Assembly (NCBI RefSeq): GCF_058153355.1
Contig: NZ_CM177019.1
Length of the DNA: 64,000 nt
Reading direction: 5' to 3' (one strand)
Shown here: positions 7,574-47,656 of the stretch, one piece after another
Numbering within the stretch: position 1 is the first letter of the stretch
How the letters are laid out: each line of letters begins with the position of its first letter
Program-made: the position numbers and the translations under genes
Notes under the pieces: generated by a model
Told to the model about the DNA's origin: nothing
What the model saw: only the letters and a program-made list of their open reading frames with translations
Databases searched by the model: none

Positions 7574-7766
7574 AGTGCGCAGATCCGGATAGCTGTGTAG
7601 ATGGTGCATGAGCAGAAATGGACAATGAAACACGAGCGACTATTTTGCGGCAAAACAGGTTATCGGCAAAAGCAGTGCGTGCTTAAAGCGATAAAATACG
7701 TGACGTTGTAACGTATTATTGCCGAATGACGCGTGATTGTCGCCATCCGGCAATATTGCGGCAACT

Positions 7767-8381
7767 TTATCGAAACAGTGGTTTAACCGCGACAGGAATC
7801 AACAGTTGTGATTGCCATTGCGCCAGCGTTAAGCGAGCCAGTTCACCCAGCGCACGGTTGAAAGGGTGTTCTGCTTTTTCGATAAAAACGTCGAGAAAAC
7901 GTGTTGACCACGGAAAAAGATGCCATGCCAGCAATTCTTCACATTCTGTCTGGCGACCATTCTCCGCCAACCATGCAACCATCAACAGCAGTGAGCCAAA
8001 ATGATCTTCCGGTTCATTTTGCTTCATTTCAAACTGAATGCCTTTCTCGCGCATCCACTGACGAAGTGCCAATGTTGAATCGCCAAACAGCACAGATTCG
8101 CGATCCAGCCAGACTGACCCCCACGGCGGAGACGGCAGTGCCCACGGGCCGACAAACAAACGCTGCCAGGCCTGGGCGCGAGTCTCTTCACTCTGTGCCT
8201 GAAAAGCCGTCACCAGCGGCGCTAATGACGCTTCTGGTAGAGGCCACTGAGTTTCCCAGCCGTCACTGGTGAGTACCGCAACCAGAGGTGCGGCTTCTGC
8301 ACTCTCTGGAGCGTAATAAAACAGCGCGCCCAACACGCGCGCCGCGACAGAAAAATTATCTTGCTGTGAAAAATGGGTCAT
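7767..8381 (-). CDS. dmsD: Tat proofreading chaperone DmsD
   Basis: Start trimmed to MTHFSQQDNF; last gene of ynfEFGH-dmsD cluster. Confidence 0.85.
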   Translation of the reverse strand: MTHFSQQDNFSVAARVLGALFYYAPESAEAAPLVAVLTSDGWETQWPLPEASLAPLVTAFQAQSEETRAQAWQRLFVGPWALPSPPWGSVWLDRESVLFGDSTLALRQWMREKGIQFEMKQNEPEDHFGSLLLMVAWLAENGRQTECEELLAWHLFPWSTRFLDVFIEKAEHPFNRALGELARLTLAQWQSQLLIPVAVKPLFR

Positions 8382-8423
8382 TCCTAACATCCTGAAATGT
8401 GCGGGTTGCCCCGCACCAATTTG

Positions 8424-9278
8424 TTAACCTGCAATAGCCATTCCTACCGTCATGTGCAGGCCATAAAAGAGCACACGCCCGATCATCTCACCGCCAAGTA
8501 TGAGGATTAGCCCCAGAATAAGTCCGGCAACGTGAGGTTCACGGCGACGAATGAGCGGACAAAGCCAGCATCCTAGACCTGTGCATAACAATACCACACG
8601 CCAGACCTGTAAGGAGGCGTAATCTGGTACCAGTGCGCTGGCTTGTTGTACGGATGAGTGAATAGATGCCAGAGACAAACCTTGCAGCACAATCACTCCG
8701 GCACAAGCGATCAGCGCCAGAACGCTGATCATGGCAAACGGTGTGGTACTAAATGTTACGCGGGCTGCCCGTAGAATTGCGGCAGCAAGTATAGGACCGC
8801 TCAACAATACCGTCAGGAAGAACGCCAGTGTAGTGTAGCCGTTGTGCCAGGTTGGCACAGTGTCGATTTGATACACGCAGGTCATCATCCAGACGAAAAT
8901 GACGCCGAGCACCATGCTAACAAGTAACCAGAGTTTCCCCAGCGCTTGCGGCATTTTACCAATGACCGCCACCAGCCACCATAATCCGCCAACGGCAAAA
9001 AATATTGAACCGGCAGCAATCTCGTTACTCAGGCCGGAAGCTCCGATTCGATTCAGCGAGTTAAACGCCCGCAGTGGCGATCCCAGGTGCATGACAGAGG
9101 CAATAAACCCGATGGCCATCAACAGCCAGAGGAAAAACATGCCACGAACAATGTGCTGACGGTCTGCGTCATTTTTGGCGGCGAACCAGCCAATTCCGCT
9201 AACAATCAGCGCGCCTACTACGCATTGACCCAATACGGTAAAGATAACCAGTGGCCATTCGTGCCATCCATTTCCCAT
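8424..9278 (-). CDS. ynfH: DMSO reductase-type membrane anchor subunit YnfH (DmsC paralog)
   Basis: 284-aa polytopic membrane ORF. Confidence 0.9.
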   Translation of the reverse strand: MGNGWHEWPLVIFTVLGQCVVGALIVSGIGWFAAKNDADRQHIVRGMFFLWLLMAIGFIASVMHLGSPLRAFNSLNRIGASGLSNEIAAGSIFFAVGGLWWLVAVIGKMPQALGKLWLLVSMVLGVIFVWMMTCVYQIDTVPTWHNGYTTLAFFLTVLLSGPILAAAILRAARVTFSTTPFAMISVLALIACAGVIVLQGLSLASIHSSVQQASALVPDYASLQVWRVVLLCTGLGCWLCPLIRRREPHVAGLILGLILILGGEMIGRVLFYGLHMTVGMAIAG

Positions 9279-9279
9279 T

Positions 9280-9897
9280 TTAAACTTCCTCCGGATTAGC
9301 CAGGTAACCAGTGGTATCGCCGGTCGGGCGGCTGTTGGCGTTAGGTTTGATTACGATATTAGGTTTTGTGAAATGCGCGCGCGGCAGTGGCGCGACGGCA
9401 GCCAGAGTACCGTGTTTCTGGCGCAGCTCTTCAATTGGACCGAACTCAAGTGCACGCAGCGGGCAGGATTCGACACAGATGGGTTGTTTCCCTTCGGCGA
9501 CGCGCGAATAACAACCATCGCACTTCGTCATGTGTCCTTTTTCAGCATTGTACTGTGGCGCGCCGTACGGACAGGCCATGTGGCAGTAGCGGCAGCCGAT
9601 ACAAACATCTTCATCAACCACCACAAAGCCATCTTCACGCTTATGCATTGCGCCGCTGGGGCAGACTTTTGTACATGCGGGGTCATCGCAATGGTTACAG
9701 GAGATGGAGAGATAATAAGCGAACACGTTCTGGTGCCAGACGCCATTATCTTCCTGCCAGTCGCCGCCAGCATATTCATAAACACGGCGGAAACTGACTT
9801 CCGGGCCAAGATCTTTAAAATCTTTGCACGCCAGTTCGCAGGTTTTACAGCCAGTACAGCGGCTGGAATCGATAAAAAATCCATATTGTGTGGTCAT
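9280..9897 (-). CDS. ynfG: 4Fe-4S ferredoxin-type subunit YnfG (DmsB paralog)
   Basis: 205 aa with four CxxCxxCxxxCP clusters. Confidence 0.9.
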   Translation of the reverse strand: MTTQYGFFIDSSRCTGCKTCELACKDFKDLGPEVSFRRVYEYAGGDWQEDNGVWHQNVFAYYLSISCNHCDDPACTKVCPSGAMHKREDGFVVVDEDVCIGCRYCHMACPYGAPQYNAEKGHMTKCDGCYSRVAEGKQPICVESCPLRALEFGPIEELRQKHGTLAAVAPLPRAHFTKPNIVIKPNANSRPTGDTTGYLANPEEV

Positions 9898-9907
9898 GGG
9901 CTACTCC

Positions 9908-12208
9908 TTAAACCTTTTCGATCTGGACGAGATTGCTGTGCGACGGGTTTCCCTTTGCCAGCGGTGAAGGGCGGTGAGAGGTCAGAATATTGATACTGCC
10001 GCCGTGATCGACCCGGTCACCAAACATATCCGCTTTAAGCCACGCACCTTGCCCGATGGCGGTTACGCCAGGCAGAATACGCGGAGTCACTTTTGCGGCA
10101 ATCAGCATTTCTCCATTATTGTTAAATACCCGCACTGTATCGCCATGACGGATACCGCGTGCCTGAGCATCAATGGGGTTGATCCACACCTCTTGTGGGC
10201 AGGCCTGCTGTAACACATCAATATTGCCGTAGCTGGAGTGGGTACGCGCTTTGTAGTGGAAGCCCGTTAACTGCAGTGGATAGGTTTTCCGCAGGGGATC
10301 GTCCCAGCCATCAAAACCTGGGGTATACGCAGGAAGGGGATGAATTATTTCATCTTTTTTCAATTCCCAGGTATCCGCAATCGTCGCCAGTCGTTCAGAA
10401 TAAATTTCGATTTTCCCCGAAGGTGTTTTCAACGGGTTTGCCTGTGGATCTTCACGGAATGCGCGGAAAGCGACATAGTGTTCTTCCGGGCATTTTTTCT
10501 TAAAGATCCCGGTCATTTTCATCTCCTCGTAGTCCGGCATCTCAGGGTTACGTTCCTTCGTTTTCGCATGGAGATATTTGATCCATTCATGCTGGCTGCG
10601 ACCTTCAGTAAAAGTTTGATAAACGTCTGGTCCTAAGCGTTTCGCGACTTCACTCAGAATCCAGTAGATGGGTTTGCGTTCAAATTTTGCCGAGGTGGCG
10701 GGTTGGGCGAGGATCACATAGCCCATATTCCCTGCAGATTCATGAGAGATAAGGTCTTCTTGCTCTGTTGGCATCAGGTCGGGCAACAGGATATCGCAAT
10801 ACTTAGCCGAGGCCGTCATGAAGTGGTCAATGCCAACAATCATCTCGCACTTGCTGTCATCCTGAAGCACCTCATGGGTGTGATTGATGTCGCCATGTTG
10901 ATTGATCAATGTGTTACTGGCGTAGCACCATAAAAACTTGATGGGGACATCCAGTTTTTCTTTTCCACGAATACCATCACGGGTCGCGGTCATTTCCGTA
11001 CCGTGGTCGATGGCATCTGTCCATGTAAAGACGGAAATCTGCGTTTTAACAGGATTATCAAGCATCGGGAACCATTCGACCCCCAGATCCCAGCTACCTT
11101 CGCGTACACCTGAGTTGCCGCCGTTTATGCCGACGTTACCGGTGAGAACGGAAAGCATGGCAATAGCGCGGGACGTTTGCTCGCCGTTGGAGTGTCGTTG
11201 TGGCCCCCAACCCTGACAAATATAAGCAGGTTTTGCTGAACCGATCTCTCGTGCCAACTGGATAATTTTTTCTGCCGGGATGCTGGTGATTTTTGCTGCC
11301 CATTCCGGCGTTTTAGCTATGCCGTCAGGTCCTTCGCCCAGAATATAGGCTTTATAATGCGCGTTACGTGGTGCGTTGGCGGGCAGCGTTTTTTCATCGT
11401 AACCAACACAATATTTGTCGAGAAATGGCTGATCGACCATGTTTTCCGTAATCAGTACCCAGGCAATCGCACAGGCCAGTGCGCCATCGGTGCCAGGGCG
11501 AATGGGCAGCCATTCATCTTCACGCCCGGCAGCGGTATCGTTATAACGTGGATCAATGACGATCATGCGTGCGTTTGAACGTTCGCGGGCTTGCTCGACG
11601 TAGTAAGTGACACCACCGCCGCTCATCCGCGTTTCTGCCGGGTTATTTCCGAACATAACGACCAGTTTCGTATTGGCGATATCATCCGGGCTGTTGCCAT
11701 CATTGGCACCGAACATATAACTCATTGCGGCACTGATCTGTGCGGTACTGTAGCTGCCATAGCGACTGAGAAAACCACCACAAGAGTTCATCAGACGGTA
11801 CGGGACGTTTGAGTTGGTGATGTTTCCGCCATCTACGCCTGTTCCGTACAGGACATGTACAGCCTCATTGCCGTAATCTTTTAGGATCCGCCGAAGATTA
11901 TCACTGATGGTATCCAGGGCTTCGTCCCAACTTATCCGTTCAAATTTACCTTCACCGCGCTTGCCGACGCGCTTCATGGGATATTTCAGCCGATCAGGAT
12001 GATTCATCCGTCGGCGGATAGAGCGCCCGCGTAAACAGGCCCGAACCTGATGATTACCGTAAACGTCGTCACCTGTCGTATCAGACTCCACCCAGTACAC
12101 AGTGTCATCTTTCACATGCAAACGTAACAGACAGCGGCTCCCGCAGTTAACGGTGCAGGAACTCCAGACCGCTTTCTCTTCTACCGGAGCCTCTGCCGCT
12201 CGGACCAT
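9908..12208 (-). CDS. ynfF: Molybdopterin oxidoreductase catalytic subunit YnfF (DmsA paralog); main 766-codon frame, apparently lacking its Tat signal peptide because of an upstream frameshift
   Basis: 766-aa ORF highly similar to adjacent ynfE; begins MVRAAEAP immediately after where the paralog carries its RR signal. Confidence 0.85.
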   Translation of the reverse strand: MVRAAEAPVEEKAVWSSCTVNCGSRCLLRLHVKDDTVYWVESDTTGDDVYGNHQVRACLRGRSIRRRMNHPDRLKYPMKRVGKRGEGKFERISWDEALDTISDNLRRILKDYGNEAVHVLYGTGVDGGNITNSNVPYRLMNSCGGFLSRYGSYSTAQISAAMSYMFGANDGNSPDDIANTKLVVMFGNNPAETRMSGGGVTYYVEQARERSNARMIVIDPRYNDTAAGREDEWLPIRPGTDGALACAIAWVLITENMVDQPFLDKYCVGYDEKTLPANAPRNAHYKAYILGEGPDGIAKTPEWAAKITSIPAEKIIQLAREIGSAKPAYICQGWGPQRHSNGEQTSRAIAMLSVLTGNVGINGGNSGVREGSWDLGVEWFPMLDNPVKTQISVFTWTDAIDHGTEMTATRDGIRGKEKLDVPIKFLWCYASNTLINQHGDINHTHEVLQDDSKCEMIVGIDHFMTASAKYCDILLPDLMPTEQEDLISHESAGNMGYVILAQPATSAKFERKPIYWILSEVAKRLGPDVYQTFTEGRSQHEWIKYLHAKTKERNPEMPDYEEMKMTGIFKKKCPEEHYVAFRAFREDPQANPLKTPSGKIEIYSERLATIADTWELKKDEIIHPLPAYTPGFDGWDDPLRKTYPLQLTGFHYKARTHSSYGNIDVLQQACPQEVWINPIDAQARGIRHGDTVRVFNNNGEMLIAAKVTPRILPGVTAIGQGAWLKADMFGDRVDHGGSINILTSHRPSPLAKGNPSHSNLVQIEKV

Positions 12209-12333
12209 TTGGGAAAATGGCAGAGTGAAAGCACTGCTTGCCAGTCGAGACTGCCAAGTGCGGAGGTTTTCATAAGACTTCTACGGCTGATTTCAGCCTT
12301 CATGAGCGCCTCTGTGGTATGGATTTTCATCAT
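12181..12333 (-). pseudogene. ynfF: Orphaned Tat-signal-peptide fragment of ynfF in a different frame (MMKIHTTEALMKAEISRRSLMKTSALGSL...)
   Basis: Manual translation; twin-arginine motif SRRSLMK; frame departs from the main ynfF frame near nt 12250 and stops at 12181. Confidence 0.55.
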
Positions 12334-12390
12334 TACTCACTTATTGCTTTTCAAACAAAATGTCATGCCAGAATTTATGGTTGTAGTGGG

Positions 12391-14817
12391 TTATATTTTT
12401 TCGATCTCGACCAGATTAGTGTGCTGCGGGTTTCCCTTCGCCAGTGGTGAAGGGCGCAGAGTGGTTAGCGTATTCACACAGCCGCCGTGGTCGATTTTAT
12501 CGCCAGACATATTGGCCTCGTGCCAGGCTCCCTGGCCCATAGCGCTAACTCCAGGGAGAATGCGTGGTGTCACTTTGGCTGGTAGCCGAACTTCGCCACG
12601 ATGGTTAAACACCCGCACCATATCGCCGTTGGCAATCCCACGTTTCTGTGCATCTATAGGGTTGATCCACACTTCCTGACGGCAGGCTGCCTTCAGGACA
12701 TCAATGTTGCCGTAGGTCGAGTGAGTACGAGATTTGTAATGGAAACCAAACAGTTGCAGTGGGAAGATACTACGTTCAGGGGAGTCCCAGCCTTCAAAGG
12801 TTGAGGCATAAACCGGCAGTGGGCTTATCACTTCATCTTTTTCCAGTTCCCAGGTACGGGCAATTTCCGCCAGCTTGCTGGAATAAATTTCAATCTTACC
12901 GGAAGGCGTTTTAAGTGGATTTGCCTCGGGGTCGTCACGAAATGCTTTGTAGGCGACAAAATGACCATTGGGATCTTTACGCTTATAGATACCCATTTTT
13001 TTCAGTTCGTCGTAAGACGGTAACGCCGGATCTTTGGCAAGCATTTTGGCGTACAGATGTTGTAACCATTGTTCCTGAGTGCGGCCTTCAGTGAATTTTT
13101 GATAGACGTCAGGGCCAAGACGTTTCGCGACTTCACTCAGGATCCAGTAAATCGGTTTGCGTTCGAATTTTTCGCTGGTGACTGGCTGGAGGAAAATGAG
13201 ATATCCCATGTTACCGGCGTAATCGTTAGGAATAATATCTTCCTGCTCAACGGTCATCAGGTCTGGCAGCAGAATGTCGGCATATTTTGCCGATGAGGTC
13301 ATAAAGTTTTCGATGACCACAATCATTTCGCATTTCGATTCGTCCTGCAGAATTTCATGCGTTTTGTTAATGTCAGAATGCTGATTAACCAGGGTATTTC
13401 CCGCGTAGTTCCAGATGAACTTAATGGGCACATCCAGTTTATCTTTGCCGCGGACGCCGTCGCGGATTGCCGTCATTTGCGGGCCATGATCGATAGCATC
13501 TGTCCAGCTGAAGCAGGAGATTGACGTTTTGACCGGATTATCCAGCACCGGCAGGCGTTCTATGGTAATGGTATAGGTGGATTCACGCGCGCCACTATTT
13601 CCGCCGCTGATGCCGACATTGCCCGTCAGAATAGGCAACATCGCAATAGCGCGTGCGGTCAGCTCACCGTTTGCCTGGCGTTGCGGTCCCCAACCCTGGC
13701 AGATATAAGCGGGTTTTGCTGTGCCGATTTCACGCGCCAGTTTGATGATACGGTCCACCGGGATACCAGTAATTTGCGAAGCCCACTGCGGCGTTTTTGC
13801 TGTTTTATCGTCACCATCACCAAGAATATAGGCTTTATAGTGGCCATTTTTTGGTGCATCTGCGGGTAAGGTTTTTTCGTCATAACCGACGCAGTATTTA
13901 TCGAGAAAAGGTTGATCAACGAGATTTTCGTTAATCAATACCCAGGCAATGCCCGCTACCAGCGCGGCATCAGTGCCCGGGCGAATAGGAATCCATTCGT
14001 CTTCACGACCGGCAGCCGTGTCGGTATATCGCGGATCGATAACAATCATTTTTGCGTTCGATTTCTCGCGCGCTTTTTCAAGAAGATAAGTGATGCCACC
14101 ACCGCTCACGCGGGTTTCTGCCGGATTGTTACCAAACATCACGACCAGCTTGCTGTTTTCAATATCCGTGGTGCTGTTGCCATCATTACTGCCGTAGGTG
14201 TAGGGCATGGCACAGGAAATTTGCGCGGTGCTGTAGGAGCCATACTGATTGAGTGAACCGCCGTAGCAGTTCATCAGGCGTTTGACCGCCGAGGCTGATG
14301 GTGAAGAGCGGGTCATATTGCCGCCAACAATCCCCGAAGAGTACTGAATATATACAGCCTCATTGCCATATTGTTCGACGGTTTTTTTCAGGCTACCAGC
14401 GATAGTATCCAGGGCTTCATCCCAGCTAATCCGTTCGAATTTGCCTTCGCCACGTTTGCCCACGCGTTTCATTGGGTAATTCAAGCGATCGGGATGATTA
14501 ATACGTCGACGGATGGACCGACCGCGCAAACAGGCGCGTACTTGATGATTGCCATACTCGTCGTTGCCGGTGTTGTCAGTTTCCACCCAGGTGACTTCAT
14601 TATCTTTAACATGTAGACGAAGTGCACAGCGGCTACCACAGTTGACGGAACAGGCACCCCAGACCACTTTTTCGCTGGCCTGTTGTACCGCTGCCGCTGC
14701 ACTGCGCAGGGTGAACGGTAAAGAAAAACCGCCTGCAGCCAGCGCCAGAGAACCTATCGCGGTAGATTTAACGAGTGTTCTGCGGCTGATGCCCACCATT
14801 TGTTCATTTTTGGACAT
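12391..14817 (-). CDS. ynfE: Tat-exported molybdopterin oxidoreductase catalytic subunit YnfE (DmsA paralog)
   Basis: 808 aa; intact Tat signal SRRTLVKSTAIGSLALAAG; CxxCxxxC Fe-S motif. Confidence 0.9.
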   Translation of the reverse strand: MSKNEQMVGISRRTLVKSTAIGSLALAAGGFSLPFTLRSAAAAVQQASEKVVWGACSVNCGSRCALRLHVKDNEVTWVETDNTGNDEYGNHQVRACLRGRSIRRRINHPDRLNYPMKRVGKRGEGKFERISWDEALDTIAGSLKKTVEQYGNEAVYIQYSSGIVGGNMTRSSPSASAVKRLMNCYGGSLNQYGSYSTAQISCAMPYTYGSNDGNSTTDIENSKLVVMFGNNPAETRVSGGGITYLLEKAREKSNAKMIVIDPRYTDTAAGREDEWIPIRPGTDAALVAGIAWVLINENLVDQPFLDKYCVGYDEKTLPADAPKNGHYKAYILGDGDDKTAKTPQWASQITGIPVDRIIKLAREIGTAKPAYICQGWGPQRQANGELTARAIAMLPILTGNVGISGGNSGARESTYTITIERLPVLDNPVKTSISCFSWTDAIDHGPQMTAIRDGVRGKDKLDVPIKFIWNYAGNTLVNQHSDINKTHEILQDESKCEMIVVIENFMTSSAKYADILLPDLMTVEQEDIIPNDYAGNMGYLIFLQPVTSEKFERKPIYWILSEVAKRLGPDVYQKFTEGRTQEQWLQHLYAKMLAKDPALPSYDELKKMGIYKRKDPNGHFVAYKAFRDDPEANPLKTPSGKIEIYSSKLAEIARTWELEKDEVISPLPVYASTFEGWDSPERSIFPLQLFGFHYKSRTHSTYGNIDVLKAACRQEVWINPIDAQKRGIANGDMVRVFNHRGEVRLPAKVTPRILPGVSAMGQGAWHEANMSGDKIDHGGCVNTLTTLRPSPLAKGNPQHTNLVEIEKI

Positions 14818-14916
14818 AACTCACTCCCTGTTCTTTATCGTTATATAAAAGTTTATATATTGAATATTTAGCGCGCTAACAATAGAGGGAGTCTACCCAT
14901 TTTGGGTTAAGAATTA

Positions 14917-14930
14917 TTAATCCATATCAA
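14917..14930 (-). promoter_or_regulatory. Candidate FNR box (TTGAT-N4-ATTAA) upstream of ynfE
   Basis: One mismatch to TTGAT-N4-ATCAA, about 100 bp upstream of the ynfE start; the operon is anaerobically expressed. Confidence 0.3.
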
Positions 14931-15015
14931 TAGAAGGGTATGAGTAATAAGGCGGGATTATGTTGTATGTTCATATCGCCGGACCTGTTGAATCCGGCGT
15001 TTAGTCAATAATGTG

Positions 15016-15321
15016 TTACTGCGGTTCGGCAGGCGCGCCATCCTGAGTAGACTGCGCGGGGGCAGAGACGTTACCGTTGGTGGTGCGGGTGTAAAGAATT
15101 TTATGCGTATCATTGGCGCAATGCCCGACGACCTGGGAATCAGGCTGATCAACCTGGTCATTGGGTACAATACTTAACGTGAAGCTGCTTTCAGGTACGC
15201 CATTATTGATAATACGCTGTGATATATCGCTCTTTATGCGCTCACAGGAAACCGGGACGGCGAGTACCGCGGGTGAGGTGAGTGCGAGCAGAAGCGCGGC
15301 ACAGCAAGTTGAGAGTTTCAT
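15016..15321 (-). CDS. ynfD: Small secreted protein YnfD (DUF1161-like)
   Basis: Start trimmed to MKLSTCCAALLLALTSPAVLA signal peptide. Confidence 0.8.
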   Translation of the reverse strand: MKLSTCCAALLLALTSPAVLAVPVSCERIKSDISQRIINNGVPESSFTLSIVPNDQVDQPDSQVVGHCANDTHKILYTRTTNGNVSAPAQSTQDGAPAEPQ

Positions 15322-15428
15322 CATAAGCTCCTTACGCGAATATAACTTCTTTAAGCATAGCATTTAACGTGTAAAGTACTGTATTTGCTACTATGATTGA
15401 GAATCATCTCTACTGTCTGGTGACTGTT

Positions 15429-16139
15429 GTGAAATACAAATTACTGCCATGCTTACTCGCGATATTACTCACAGGATGTGACCGCACAGAGGTAACACTT
15501 TCATTTACCCCTGAGATGGCCAGTTTCTCTAATGAATTCGATTTTGATCCGCTGCGTGGTCCGGTAAAAGATTTCACTCAGACATTAATGGATGAGCAAG
15601 GTGAAGTGACGAAACGTGTTTCGGGGACTTTGTCGGAAGAAGGCTGTTTTGATTCACTCGAATTACTGGATCTGGAAAATAATACCGTGGTTGCCCTGGT
15701 ATTGGACGCCAATTATTACCGTGATGCCCAGACGCTGGAGAAAAGAGTACGTTTACAGGGAAAATGCCAGCTAGCAGAATTACCTTCTGCCGGGGTGAGT
15801 TGGGAAACCGATGATAATGGCTTCGTGATTAAAGCCAGCAGCAAACAAATGCAGATGGAATATCGCTATGATGAGCAGGGGTATCCGCTGGGTAAAACCA
15901 CGAAAAGTAACGACAAAACATTATCTGTCAGCGCCACGCCATCAACGGATCCGATCAAAAAATTAGATTACACCGCGGTTACTTTACTGAATAATCAACG
16001 GGTAGGTAATGTAAAACAGAGCTGTGAATATGACAGTCACGCCAATCCGGTGGACTGTCAGCTAATCATTGTTGATGAAGGAGTAAAACCCGCCGTCGAA
16101 CGGGTTTATACCATCAAAAATACTATCGATTATTATTAA
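15429..16139 (+). CDS. ynfC: Lipoprotein YnfC (UPF0257), GTG start
   Basis: Lipobox LLTGC after signal peptide. Confidence 0.8.
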   Translation: MKYKLLPCLLAILLTGCDRTEVTLSFTPEMASFSNEFDFDPLRGPVKDFTQTLMDEQGEVTKRVSGTLSEEGCFDSLELLDLENNTVVALVLDANYYRDAQTLEKRVRLQGKCQLAELPSAGVSWETDDNGFVIKASSKQMQMEYRYDEQGYPLGKTTKSNDKTLSVSATPSTDPIKKLDYTAVTLLNNQRVGNVKQSCEYDSHANPVDCQLIIVDEGVKPAVERVYTIKNTIDYY

Positions 16140-16141
16140 TG

Positions 16142-16702
16142 CTATTGTGCGGTCGGCTTCAGGAGAGTCTGACCCGGTGTTTTGTGCTCTGCCAGATACT
16201 GATGCTGGAATATGCACATGCGAATGGCATTCCGATATTGACCATTAATAAAGAACTCATGCATCAATTCACCTTCAACCGTAAAGCCAAGCTTGCGGTA
16301 AATGTGAATTGCTTTTTCGTTCTCTTTATCGACGATCAGATACAGCTTATAGAGATTGAGAACGGTGAAGCCATAGTCCATTGCTAATTTTGCGGCACGC
16401 GTTGCCAGACCTTTCCCCTGATACTCCGGGGAGATAATTATCTGAAATTCTGCGCGGCGATGGACATGGTTAATTTCCACCAGCTCCACCAGACCGGCTT
16501 TTTCGCCGTCACATTCCACCACAAAGCGCCGCTCGCTCTGATCGTGAATATGCTTATCATACAGATCAGAGAGTTCAACGAAGGCTTCGTAGGGTTCCTC
16601 AAACCAGTAACGCATCACACTGGCGTTATTGTCGAGTTGATGTACATAGCGTAAATCTTCACGCTCCAGCGGACGTAGCTTAACACTGTGGGCGCTTGGC
16701 AT
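16142..16702 (-). CDS. speG: Spermidine N1-acetyltransferase SpeG (GNAT)
   Basis: 186-aa ORF recognised as SpeG. Confidence 0.9.
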
Positions 16703-16736
16703 AACGTGTCCTTACATTCCTTAAATCAATAACAGG

Positions 16737-17078
16737 TTAGGGGGTAATAACGCGGCCAGTTCGACGGTCCAGGCAGCGCAATGTATTTGGCTCCCAGTAG
16801 GCATTGATGTTGGCACTTTGCTCGCATTTATCGCGGTTATCAAAAGCGGCGTCGGCTTTATCCCACTCTTTTTCAGTGCGTTTATTCACTTTCTGTCGCA
16901 GATTGCGCGTGTCATTCCATTGTTCTTTTTCCATTGCTGCGTGCTGGCGGCTTTGTGCTCTGTCGCCAGACTCAATCACCAGTTTGTTAGTTTCGGCATG
17001 GGCCGTTGTGCTCAATGCCAGTGCGCAAGGCAGCAGAAAAGCGAGCAGGCCAATTCGTTTGCTGAGAGTAATTTTCAT
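16737..17078 (-). CDS. ynfB: Secreted protein YnfB (UPF0482)
   Basis: 113 aa with signal peptide. Confidence 0.85.
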
Positions 17079-17212
17079 AATTCATTCCCTGTATGAATGA
17101 TTAAAGGTGATTCTACACCATCCACTGCGAACGCAAAACGTACCAGGAGGATGTTTATATTGATGATATTATGTCGTCCTATAACTATACATGATGTCAA
17201 TAAGTGACAAAG

Positions 17213-17539
17213 ATGATTAAAACAACGTTACTATTTTTTGCTACTGCGCTGTGTGAAATTATTGGATGCTTTCTGCCCTGGTTGTGGTTAAAACGAAACG
17301 CCAGTATCTGGCTGTTGCTTCCGGCGGGGATTTCTCTGGCACTGTTTGTCTGGTTGTTAACGTTGCATCCTGCGGCGAGTGGGCGTGTTTACGCGGCTTA
17401 TGGTGGCGTTTATGTCTGCACGGCGTTGATTTGGCTGCGCGTTGTGGATGGCGTGAAGTTAAGTCTTTATGACTGGACGGGGGCGTTGATTGCGCTTTGC
17501 GGCATGTTGATCATTGTTGCGGGCTGGGGGCGCGCGTAA
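17213..17539 (+). CDS. ynfA: Small inner-membrane protein YnfA (UPF0060)
   Basis: Start trimmed to MIKTTLLFF; hydrophobic. Confidence 0.8.
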
Positions 17540-17744
17540 GGACATAAATCCATTTTATCAATAAGATACAAGGAAGTGTCAGCTGACAAAAGGTATTCTA
17601 TTTCATCTTTTGTCAACCATTCACGGCGCAAATATACACCTTTTTTTGTGATCACTCCGGCTTTTTTCGATCTTTATACTTGTATGGTAGTAGCTCAGTT
17701 GCGTAGATTTCATGCATCACGACAAGCGATGCAAGGAATCGAAC

Positions 17745-18959
17745 ATGAAGATCGTAAAGGCTGAAGTTTTTGTTACCTGTCCGGGGCGTAATTTCGTCAC
17801 ATTAAAAATCACCACTGAGGACGGTATTACGGGCCTTGGGGATGCCACCCTCAATGGACGTGAGCTTTCCGTGGCCTCTTATTTGCAGGATCACCTTTGT
17901 CCGCAGCTTATTGGTCGCGATGCACAGCGTATCGAAGATATCTGGCAGTTTTTTTATAAAGGTGCTTACTGGCGTCGCGGTCCGGTGACGATGTCGGCCA
18001 TTTCAGCGGTTGATATGGCGCTGTGGGATATTAAAGCCAAAGCTGCCAACATGCCGCTTTACCAGTTACTCGGCGGCGCGTCTCGTGAAGGGGTGATGGT
18101 TTATTGCCATACCACCGGTCACAGTATTGATGAAGCTCTGGATGATTATGCCCGTCATCAGGCGCTGGGATTCAAAGCCATCCGCGTGCAGTGCGGAATC
18201 CCTGGTATGAAAACCACCTACGGCATGTCGAAAGGCAAAGGTCTGGCTTATGAACCCGCAACCAAAGGACAGTGGCCGGAAGAGCAGCTGTGGTCGACGG
18301 AGAAATACCTCGATTTCATGCCGAAATTGTTTGACGCGGTACGTAACAAGTTTGGTTTTAATGAACATTTGCTACATGACATGCACCATCGCTTAACGCC
18401 TATTGAAGCGGCGCGCTTTGGTAAAAGCATTGAAGATTATCGCATGTTCTGGATGGAAGACCCGACGCCTGCGGAAAACCAGGAATGCTTCCGCCTGATT
18501 CGCCAACACACCGTCACGCCAATTGCAGTGGGTGAAGTCTTCAATAGCATTTGGGACTGCAAACAGCTGATTGAAGAACAACTTATCGACTATATCCGCA
18601 CCACGCTGACTCACGCGGGGGGGATTACCGGTATGCGCCGGATTGCCGATTTTGCTTCGCTGTATCAGGTACGTACTGGCTCACACGGTCCTTCCGATTT
18701 GTCGCCAGTCTGCATGGCTGCGGCGCTGCACTTTGATCTGTGGGTCCCCAATTTCGGTGTCCAGGAATACATGGGTTATTCCGAACAAATGCTTGAAGTC
18801 TTCCCGCACAACTGGACTTTCGATAACGGCTATATGCATCCGGGAGACAAACCGGGTCTTGGCATCGAATTCGATGAAAAGCTGGCGGCGAAATATCCCT
18901 ATGAACCTGCTTATCTGCCAGTCGCACGTCTGGAAGATGGCACGCTGTGGAACTGGTAA
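17745..18959 (+). CDS. rspA: Enolase-superfamily mannonate/altronate dehydratase-like starvation-sensing protein RspA
   Basis: Start trimmed to [10 protein letters not shown]. Confidence 0.9.
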
Positions 18960-45562: not shown

Positions 45563-45650
45563 ATTTTTACTCCCGTCAGCGCGTTACCCCTAGTGTAGAT
45601 AAAACTGTTGACATCCTCCACGCCCTGAAGGACGTGGATCCCTGCTACGT

Positions 45651-46859
45651 TCAGGCTGTCGCCTGAATCATTTCGGTGGGTTCCTGCTTCAACGGGCGGC
45701 CTGACTGCACCATCCCTCCACAGGCAAGAACGGCGTGCCCCGCCGCTAAAATGTTACGAGCGCCGTTCACATCGGCGTTCGCTGTGTATCCACATACCTG
45801 GCATCTGAATTTACTTTGTGACAGACGATTTTCTTTCGCTGTATGACCACAGCACGCGCAACGCTGGCTTGTGTACGCTGGCGGAACAGCAAGCACCTGA
45901 CCACCACGCCAGAGCTGCTTGTACTCAAGCTGGCGGCGCATTTCATACCAGCCCTGATCCAGTATCGAACGGTTTAAACCTGATTTTGCCCGGACATTGC
46001 GCCCCGGCGGGCTGACCGTACCCGCTGCTGACTTTGACATGTTACTGACCTTCAAATCCTCAATGACTATCATTGCGTGGTTTTTGCTGACGGTCGTTGT
46101 GACTTTATGAAGGTAGTCCCTGCGGATATTTGCGATACGGGAATGCAGTCGCTGTATTTTGCGTTTCTGCTTCTGCCAGTTATTGCTGAATTTGACCTTG
46201 CGGCTTAACTGTCGCTGAAGTCTCGCCAGCGTCTTCTGGTTTTTCTGAAAACTGTTTACAGGCTCAAAGACTGTGCCATCTGACAGCATGGCGAGTTTAG
46301 CCACGCCAGCATCCAGCCCGATCATTGATGCTGAAGGGTGAACCGGAGTGGATACTTCACTTTCTGTCTGAATACTGATGTACCACTTACCGCAGGACTG
46401 GCTGACAGTGACATTTTTCACAACCCCCGTGACCTGACGGCTGTTCCGGTAGCGCATCCAGCCCAGTTTCGGCAGAAAAATACGGCTGTTTTCCTGATCG
46501 AGCTTAACGCCCTGCGGGTAGCGGAATGCATCATTCTGTCCCCGCGTTTTGAATCGGGGAAAAGCAGCCCGCTTCTGGAAGAAGTTTTTGTAAGCCCGCT
46601 CAAGGTCTTTCAGTGACTGTTGCAATGGCTGTGAGGGCGAATCTTTAAGCCATTGCGTTTCAGTGGCGTTTTTCCACTCAACCAGCCAGGAAGCCATTTT
46701 CCCGTAAGGGATGTATTTATTACCGGCCTCATGATTCTCATTCTGACGTGCCAGAGCACGATTGAAAACGAAACGACATGCGCCTGCGAAGCGCCTCATT
46801 TCACGCTCCTGTTGACCACCGGGTCTTAACTGGAATTTAAATGCCTGTAGTCGTTTCAC
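45651..46859 (-). CDS. tnpB: TnpB (OrfB) RNA-guided endonuclease of the IS200/IS605 family, apparently intact
   Basis: 402 aa; C-terminal zinc finger CACCGH...CQVCG and RuvC-III motif [10 protein letters not shown]. Confidence 0.85.
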
Positions 46860-46866
46860 AGGTCAA

Positions 46867-47340
46867 ATGATACTTTGGTCTGTGAAAAAAGAAACCGATA
46901 TCCGGCGTGGAAGGCATTGTGTTTTCCTGATGCATGTTCACCTGGTCTTTGTCCCAAATACCGACGCCAGATTTTTGACCATGACGCGACAGAAAAACTA
47001 CGCACTTACTTTTCAAATGTATGTGCTGATTTTGAAGCTGAACTGGTTGAAATGGATGGCGAACCAGATCACGTCCATTTGTTAATTAACTATCCTCCCA
47101 AACTGGCGATATCCAGTCTGGTAAACAGCCTCAAAGGCGTATCGGGTAGGTTACTGCGACGAGATCGACCAGATATTGCAGTCAGGTATTACTACAAAGG
47201 CGTTTTGTGGAGTCCTGGCTATTTTGCCAGTAGCTGCGGAGGTGCGCCAATATCCGTCATCCGCCAATACATTGAACAACAGCAAACACCTGGTCAGGTG
47301 GAAAACCGCGCCTTATATCCCCGCCCTGAAGGACGGGGTT
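46867..47340 (+). pseudogene. tnpA: IS200-type Y1 (HuH) transposase TnpA, apparently frameshifted near its N-terminus
   Basis: First beta-strand motif MHVHLVFVP lies in the ATG frame (46867) but PKYRRQIF, the HuH motif DHVHLL and the catalytic region YIEQQ continue in the +2 frame (46875, TTG). Confidence 0.55.
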
Positions 47341-47365
47341 TTACGGCGCACCGGATAAATTCGCC

Positions 47366-47656
47366 TCACGGCATCAATCCATTGAACAGACGTTTTTTAC
47401 GCGGCCCGGTCATTAAAGATTCCAGTTTTGCGACACAGGTTTTGTAGTGGGGCGTGGTTTTATGGAACGCCACTGCGTCTTCATCTTTATAGGCTTCATA
47501 GATATAAAAGCGCGAATTCACTTCCGGGTCCTGTAAGACATCGAAGCGCAAATTGCCTTCTTCCTGTACCGAGCCCAGGTGGTTCTGGCGAAAAACTTCG
47601 ATAAACTCGTCAACCTTGTCTTCATGAACGTTAATTTCAACCAGTGTGACGTGCAT
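47366..47656 (-). CDS. lsrG: AI-2 degrading protein LsrG
   Basis: 96-aa ORF; last gene of the lsr operon. Confidence 0.9.

Follow-up and report, generated by a model that had tools for sequence, protein, structure and literature searches.

Does the ynfF gene of this E. coli strain still encode an exported reductase, or has it been inactivated? In the window (the whole 64,000-nucleotide stretch of contig NZ_CM177019.1 that was analysed), the twin-arginine leader of YnfF and the body of the enzyme are found in different reading frames. This arrangement could reflect a pseudogene, a gene that is still expressed in spite of its split frame, or an intact gene with one faulty base in the assembly. 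Our analysis points to the first of these: ynfF in this strain is very probably a recent, strain-specific pseudogene created by the deletion of one C at codon 29, in the hydrophobic core of the Tat signal peptide. We describe below the operon and the lesion, the distribution of the allele among E. coli genomes, and the expected consequences for the organism.

Organization of the ynfE-ynfF-ynfG-ynfH-dmsD operon

The window retains the order ynfE-ynfF-ynfG-ynfH-dmsD at positions 7767-14817, with the four partner genes of ynfF intact (Table 1). The locus, the operon order and the neighbouring genes are the same as those of the intact E. coli ynfF (b1588), which encodes a Tat-exported catalytic subunit of a selenate/tellurate reductase, and the window gene shares about 98% DNA identity with its K-12 counterpart. 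It differs from b1588 in lacking one C at nucleotide 86, with the result that leader and enzyme are in different frames. YnfE and YnfF are paralogous isoenzymes (PMC12724226), and DmsD, the product of the last gene, is the Tat proofreading chaperone for DmsA, YnfE and YnfF (PMC5203670, PMC12096835). An earlier note on this DNA, made from the sequence alone, had described the paralogue ynfE as carrying an intact leader, and this was borne out: the YnfE model is matched end to end, with a score of 1793.8 bits against the NCBIfam profile NF041885 (selenate_YnfE, cut-off 1675) over profile positions 2-805. A promoter and terminator scan of positions 7600-15100 returned 6 promoter-like sites versus 8.2 in shuffled sequence, and is thus uninformative on an internal promoter for ynfG, ynfH or dmsD.

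Table 1. Features of the ynfF lesion and of the surrounding operon (window coordinates)
Feature	Coordinates	Strand	Details
One-base deletion site	12245..12246	-	Missing C between g12246 and a12245, from alignments with close relatives and K-12
ynfF body ORF	9908..12208	-	766 codons plus stop; NF041884 match
ynfF remnant leader ORF	12181..12333	-	50 codons if counted from the first ATG and 49 with the RefSeq-style start (12330)
Twin-arginine motif S15-R16-R17-S18-L19-M20-K21	12268..12288	-	agc cgt aga agt ctt atg aaa
ynfE, intact paralogue	14817..12391	-	808 aa; own Tat leader (MSKNEQMVGISRRTLVKSTAIGSLALAAGGFSLPF..)
ynfG, iron-sulfur subunit, intact	9280..9897	-	tblastn 205/205 aa, no gaps; downstream of the frameshift, same operon
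ynfH, membrane anchor, intact	8424..9278	-	tblastn versus R32_14_1F
dmsD, Tat proofreading chaperone, intact	7767..8381	-	Last gene of the operon; tblastn versus R32_14_1F

A one-base deletion in the Tat signal peptide of YnfF

The ORF listing resolves ynfF on the minus strand into two ORFs in adjacent frames, a 50-codon leader and a 766-codon body. The earlier note had claimed that the twin-arginine leader is out of frame with the body and that the leader frame ends at 12181; the ORFs and their translations agree with the former, and a TAG codon at 12183-12181 with the latter. It had also placed the divergence of the two frames near 12250, where the window reads ctcgactggc rather than ctcgcactggc, the string given there for K-12. 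The position and the missing base hold, as a one-base gap between 12246 and 12245, but the attribution of the longer string to K-12 does not. In an alignment with E. coli 2013C-4282, K-12 MG1655 and three contigs with a window-identical YnfE, the window has ctcg-actggc and its nearest relatives ctcgcactggc. The latter is the allele of the closest relatives of the window, and K-12 MG1655 has cttgcgctggc at this site, a reading that leaves the argument from length and frame unaffected.

The deleted C is nucleotide 86 of the 2,424-nt ynfF coding sequence (K-12 numbering). Its loss changes the Ala29 codon, one of 807, from GCA to G-A (p.Ala29Aspfs*22), at a position that follows the SRRSLMK motif and falls within the hydrophobic h-region of the Tat signal peptide. 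The surrounding sequence, tcg[c]act, contains no homopolymer. Relative to K-12, the close relatives and 15 other loci, the indel is not a multiple of three and converts one ORF into two frames, as is characteristic of a frameshifted pseudogene. The ynfF body is otherwise undamaged, with no second disabling mutation, and the deletion event is therefore likely to be very young. When one C is re-inserted, the conceptual protein agrees at each of its 807 residues with YnfF of GCA_015332025.1, the nearest relative.

The leader ORF is translated as MMKIHTTEALMKAEISRRSLMKTSALGSL, followed by the out-of-frame tail DWQAVLSLCHFPKWSERQRLR and the stop codon. It retains the Tat n-region and twin-arginine motif along with the initial third of the h-region, beyond which 21 out-of-frame codons lead to the TAG, and its residues 2-32 give a weak match to the start of the DmsA model. 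A motif of the S/T-R-R-x-F-L-K type is present after a polar n-region, in the form of SRRSLMK, and its sequence is unchanged from that of the intact ynfF of the relatives. What this ORF lacks is an unbroken h-region and an A-x-A cleavage region that share the frame of the mature protein: after Leu28 it enters the out-of-frame tail, and the wild-type continuation ALASSAFTLPFSQMVRA-AEAP sits in the other frame. The RefSeq start of ynfF is the second ATG (window position 12330), which gives 807 aa, and the first M of MMKIH is therefore probably outside the YnfF protein. The public assemblies record no gene call for the 50-aa leader peptide.

The product of the body ORF consists of the final four signal-peptide residues and the entire mature molybdoenzyme. 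The ORF starts at the Met of ..FSQMVRAAEAP (..FSQMVRAAEAPVEEKAVWSSCTVNCGSRC..) and runs uninterrupted to ..NLVQIEKV and the stop codon, with the Cys-rich N-terminal FeS motif and all three Pfam domains present. In tblastn, YnfF of E. coli strain R32_14_1F (NZ_CP074749.1) aligns colinearly over 778 aa. The 766-aa product scores 1741.4 bits against NCBIfam NF041884 (selenate_YnfF), above the cut-off of 1650, and 1257 against TIGR02166 (the DmsA/YnfE subfamily, cut-off 777.7). However, it aligns to NF041884 positions 38-798 of 798, versus 1-798 for an intact relative. Profile positions 1-37 are outside the body, and no single continuous frame covers the whole profile with its leader part.

Distribution of the deletion among E. 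coli genomes

A 30-mer centred on the deletion junction found no match in 5,426 complete E. coli genomes, and no junction-spanning 28-mer was found there. Since a centred 30-mer can seed only if the deletion is present, the lack of a match means that the junction is absent from this collection. An off-centre 50-mer across the junction gave 1,668 gapped matches, none of them at 100%. With a 301-base query over the site, 5,289 of the 5,426 genomes were matched at a best identity of 99.0%, and among the matches listed each record spans one base more than the query. The earlier note had named one observation that would count against a frameshift, namely the same arrangement in reference ynfF genes. 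This is not the case: the 5' end of ynfF is in frame in K-12 and in 15 other loci from different assemblies. Ten diverse E. coli loci were drawn via the YdfJ protein, whose conservation (8,667 blocks) is too high to single out close relatives, and the 5' end was in frame in all ten.

The sequence places the window in a sparsely sampled E. coli lineage. In a large assembly collection, the exact YnfE protein of the window was found in five contigs. The Logan assembly of the run SRR31441161 is 100% identical to window positions 9753-18806 (9,054 bp), deletion included, and it is the only other assembly in which the 766-aa product is recorded. Two further relatives, SRR28786219 and GCA_015332025.1, differ from the window by one SNP each over 9 kb and have an intact ynfF. 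The close relative SRR8656992 shows three mismatches and no gap over 17,919 bp. Such divergence, about 1-2 SNPs per 10 kb, leaves ample time for private mutations to arise, the ynfF deletion among them.

The one SNP that separates the window from SRR28786219 and GCA_015332025.1 is at position 16959 and is likewise private to the window and SRR31441161. It changes ynfB codon 40 from AGT to AGA (S40R); residue 40 is Ser in all other inspected loci. This change and the ynfF deletion are two private mutations within 4.7 kb of each other. In the adjacent ynfB-ynfA intergenic region, GCA_015332025.1, the closest relative in NCBI, lacks 34 bp that correspond to window positions 17111-17144. These 34 bp are present in the window, SRR28786219 and SRR31441161, and the ynfB-ynfA spacing of the window equals that of R32_14_1F.

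Sequencing error or laboratory mutation as possible sources of the deletion

A single-base error in the reads or in the consensus, the alternative named in the earlier note, would produce the same picture, with the C present and ynfF intact in the true genome. The lesion is the sole one in an otherwise perfect gene that, this base aside, does not differ from the relatives' intact allele, which fits an artefact as well as a recent mutation, and the allele is known only from the window and SRR31441161, possibly the same isolate. Indeed, this run may be the read set behind the assembly of the window itself, in which case it confirms the consensus call and does not represent an independent isolate. 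Nevertheless, the Logan assembly of SRR31441161 was generated by a separate pipeline and agrees base for base over 9 kb, and the deletion lies in no homopolymer, whereas most indel errors do. No other frameshift was found in the neighbourhood: compared with E. coli R32_14_1F, 55 further conserved genes in the 56 kb that run from ydgD to lsrK align over their full length without gaps, and no other indel was detected over 27 kb in comparison with the close relatives (SRR28786219/GCA_015332025.1 and SRR8656992). Given the sequence context, the intact genes, the lack of indels and the matching assembly, we consider a sequencing error quite unlikely. A mis-assembly between the paralogues ynfE and ynfF was also considered and rejected, as their leader regions are dissimilar and the flanks of the deletion match ynfF exactly.

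The deletion could also be real and have arisen during laboratory passage of the isolate and not in nature. The mutation is very recent and confined to the window plus one run, and ynfF would be dispensable in the laboratory, judging from the Salmonella delta-ynfF data cited in PMC5203670. Nothing in the sequence separates such an origin from a recent natural mutation, however, and the time allowed by the SNP divergence noted above is ample for private mutations in nature. We regard an origin in the laboratory as unlikely, and a natural pseudogene as the preferred reading.

Potential for expression of the split gene

The two frames overlap by about 97 nt (12280-12184), so that the split ynfF might in principle remain functional, either by -1 slippage of the ribosome within the overlap or by re-initiation at the ATG at 12208. 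The body frame is open from 12280, and this ATG, which is located after the twin-arginine motif, is the first ATG, GTG or TTG codon in it. The overlap includes a run of four T (cat ttt tcc), the ATG lies 25 nt upstream of the TAG codon of the leader frame (12183-12181), making termination-re-initiation geometrically possible, and the YnfF body that would be produced is undamaged. On the other hand, a canonical X XXY YYZ slippery heptamer is lacking in 12280-12184, which has only the T4 run, and no Shine-Dalgarno sequence precedes the ATG at 12208 (upstream sequence CAAGCAGTGCTTTCACTCTGCCATTTTCCCAAATG; ..CACTCTGCCATTTTCCCAA). The arrangement is absent from the 5,426 complete genomes, whereas programmed recoding sites are conserved. 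Moreover, a slipped product would have a scrambled h-region, and a re-initiated one would be devoid of the Tat leader needed for DmsD and for export (PMC5203670). Functional rescue of ynfF by either route is accordingly very improbable. Programmed ribosomal frameshifting in particular was rejected for want of a slippery heptamer and of conservation among homologues. There is a similarly slight chance that the body is expressed leaderless or with a variant leader, in which case the periplasmic reductase would be relocated (to the cytoplasm, if leaderless) rather than destroyed.

Comparison with other disrupted ynfE and ynfF alleles

A pangenome analysis from 2026 that covered 2,377 E. coli genomes places ynfE and ynfF among the most frequently pseudogenised metabolic genes (PMC13322260). 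In the present comparison, less than 80% of ynfF is covered in 577 of the 5,316 genomes with a ynfF match. Among the individual cases, strain SK1144 has a ynfF remnant of 1,570 nt, 854 bp shorter and flagged as 'frameshifted' by PGAP, NY1601 carries a different one-base deletion in ynfF, in a G5 run at nucleotide 1248, and the ynfE product of E200086 has 380 aa. All of these resemble the window allele in that function is lost in one paralogue and the rest of the operon is kept. In contrast to them, only the lesion in the window falls within the signal peptide and leaves the whole mature domain untouched. Elsewhere in the same operon, E. coli 2013C-4282 has a truncated ynfG beside a phage antirepressor gene.

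The h-region of a DmsD-dependent Tat leader is also the site of the signal-peptide mutations L24Q and A28Q in Salmonella YnfE, and chaperone binding maps to this region (PMC5203670). The Salmonella variants are engineered missense mutations that keep the frame, whereas in ynfF of the window the frame is lost and the leader is left unattached to the enzyme.

Other features of the window

Several observations concern the background of the strain and other parts of the window. For positions 1-25000, the best identity among the 5,426 complete genomes was 98.9%; only four genomes reached 98.8-98.9%, and the next best among the matches listed had 97.7%. Exact matches to the Sad protein of the window were found in only five contigs of the large assembly collection.

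A 1.75-kb element of the IS200/IS605 family is inserted between tam and lsrG at positions 45608-47353, and is absent from E. coli R32_14_1F and GCA_033186615.1. It encodes a 402-aa TnpB on the minus strand (45651-46859; NF040570, 387 bits) and a divergent IS200-type TnpA ORF on the plus strand (46875-47447), the latter extending about 30 codons beyond the end of the insertion.

At positions 56119-58799, an autotransporter gene of the ECSE_1600 family is broken into three frames and contains an exact direct repeat of 300 nt with a spacing of 521 nt (57230-57529 and 57751-58050). Truncated at about residue 894 of 1806, the gene runs directly into the final 64 codons of hipA (58608-58799); the larger part of hipA is missing, and so is hipB.

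Within the following segment (58800-64000), the minus strand encodes a 400-aa leucine-rich-repeat protein at 60610-61812. It is similar to two type III effectors, SspH2 and SlrP, in their leucine-rich-repeat part, with a match that falls far short of the NCBIfam cut-off (E=1e-31), and no NEL ligase domain is visible. At least 80% of the 5.4-kb segment with this gene is shared by only one of the 5,426 complete E. coli genomes. The homologue there, 508 aa long, is annotated as 'NEL-type E3 ubiquitin ligase domain-containing protein', and about 108 aa of repeats are absent from the window copy.

Expected consequences and annotation of ynfF

Translation from the normal ynfF start would yield a peptide of 49-50 residues that contains the twin-arginine motif and a scrambled h-region, and the YnfF body would be made little or not at all. 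Any body that is made would lack the Tat leader bound by DmsD, and would probably be neither properly matured nor exported to the periplasm. With the leader unattached to the body, periplasmic YnfF would be lost. This supports the interpretation in the earlier note, by which YnfF would either not be produced or not reach the periplasm. Sambasivarao et al. reportedly observed in 2000 that DmsA without its leader is an unstable and untargeted enzyme. The leader is required for DmsD binding and export (PMC5203670). The strain would then depend on the intact YnfE, together with YnfG and YnfH, for the reduction of selenate and tellurate. In addition, the untranslated stretch of 2.3 kb might cause Rho-dependent polarity and lower the expression of ynfG, ynfH and dmsD. 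In Salmonella, YnfF 'does not contribute greatly' to selenate reduction (PMC5203670), and because of this minor role we expect a mild phenotype in the strain studied here.

For annotation, ynfF in this genome is better described as a frameshifted pseudogene than as a 766-aa 'molybdopterin oxidoreductase' accompanied by a small hypothetical protein. The deletion could also be of use in recognizing this rare lineage, as a clone-specific marker. On the sequence evidence, the allele appears to be private so far, and the kind of event appears ordinary and already known. Beyond correct annotation the finding matters little, and it represents one more case of the frequent decay of the redundant pair ynfE and ynfF.
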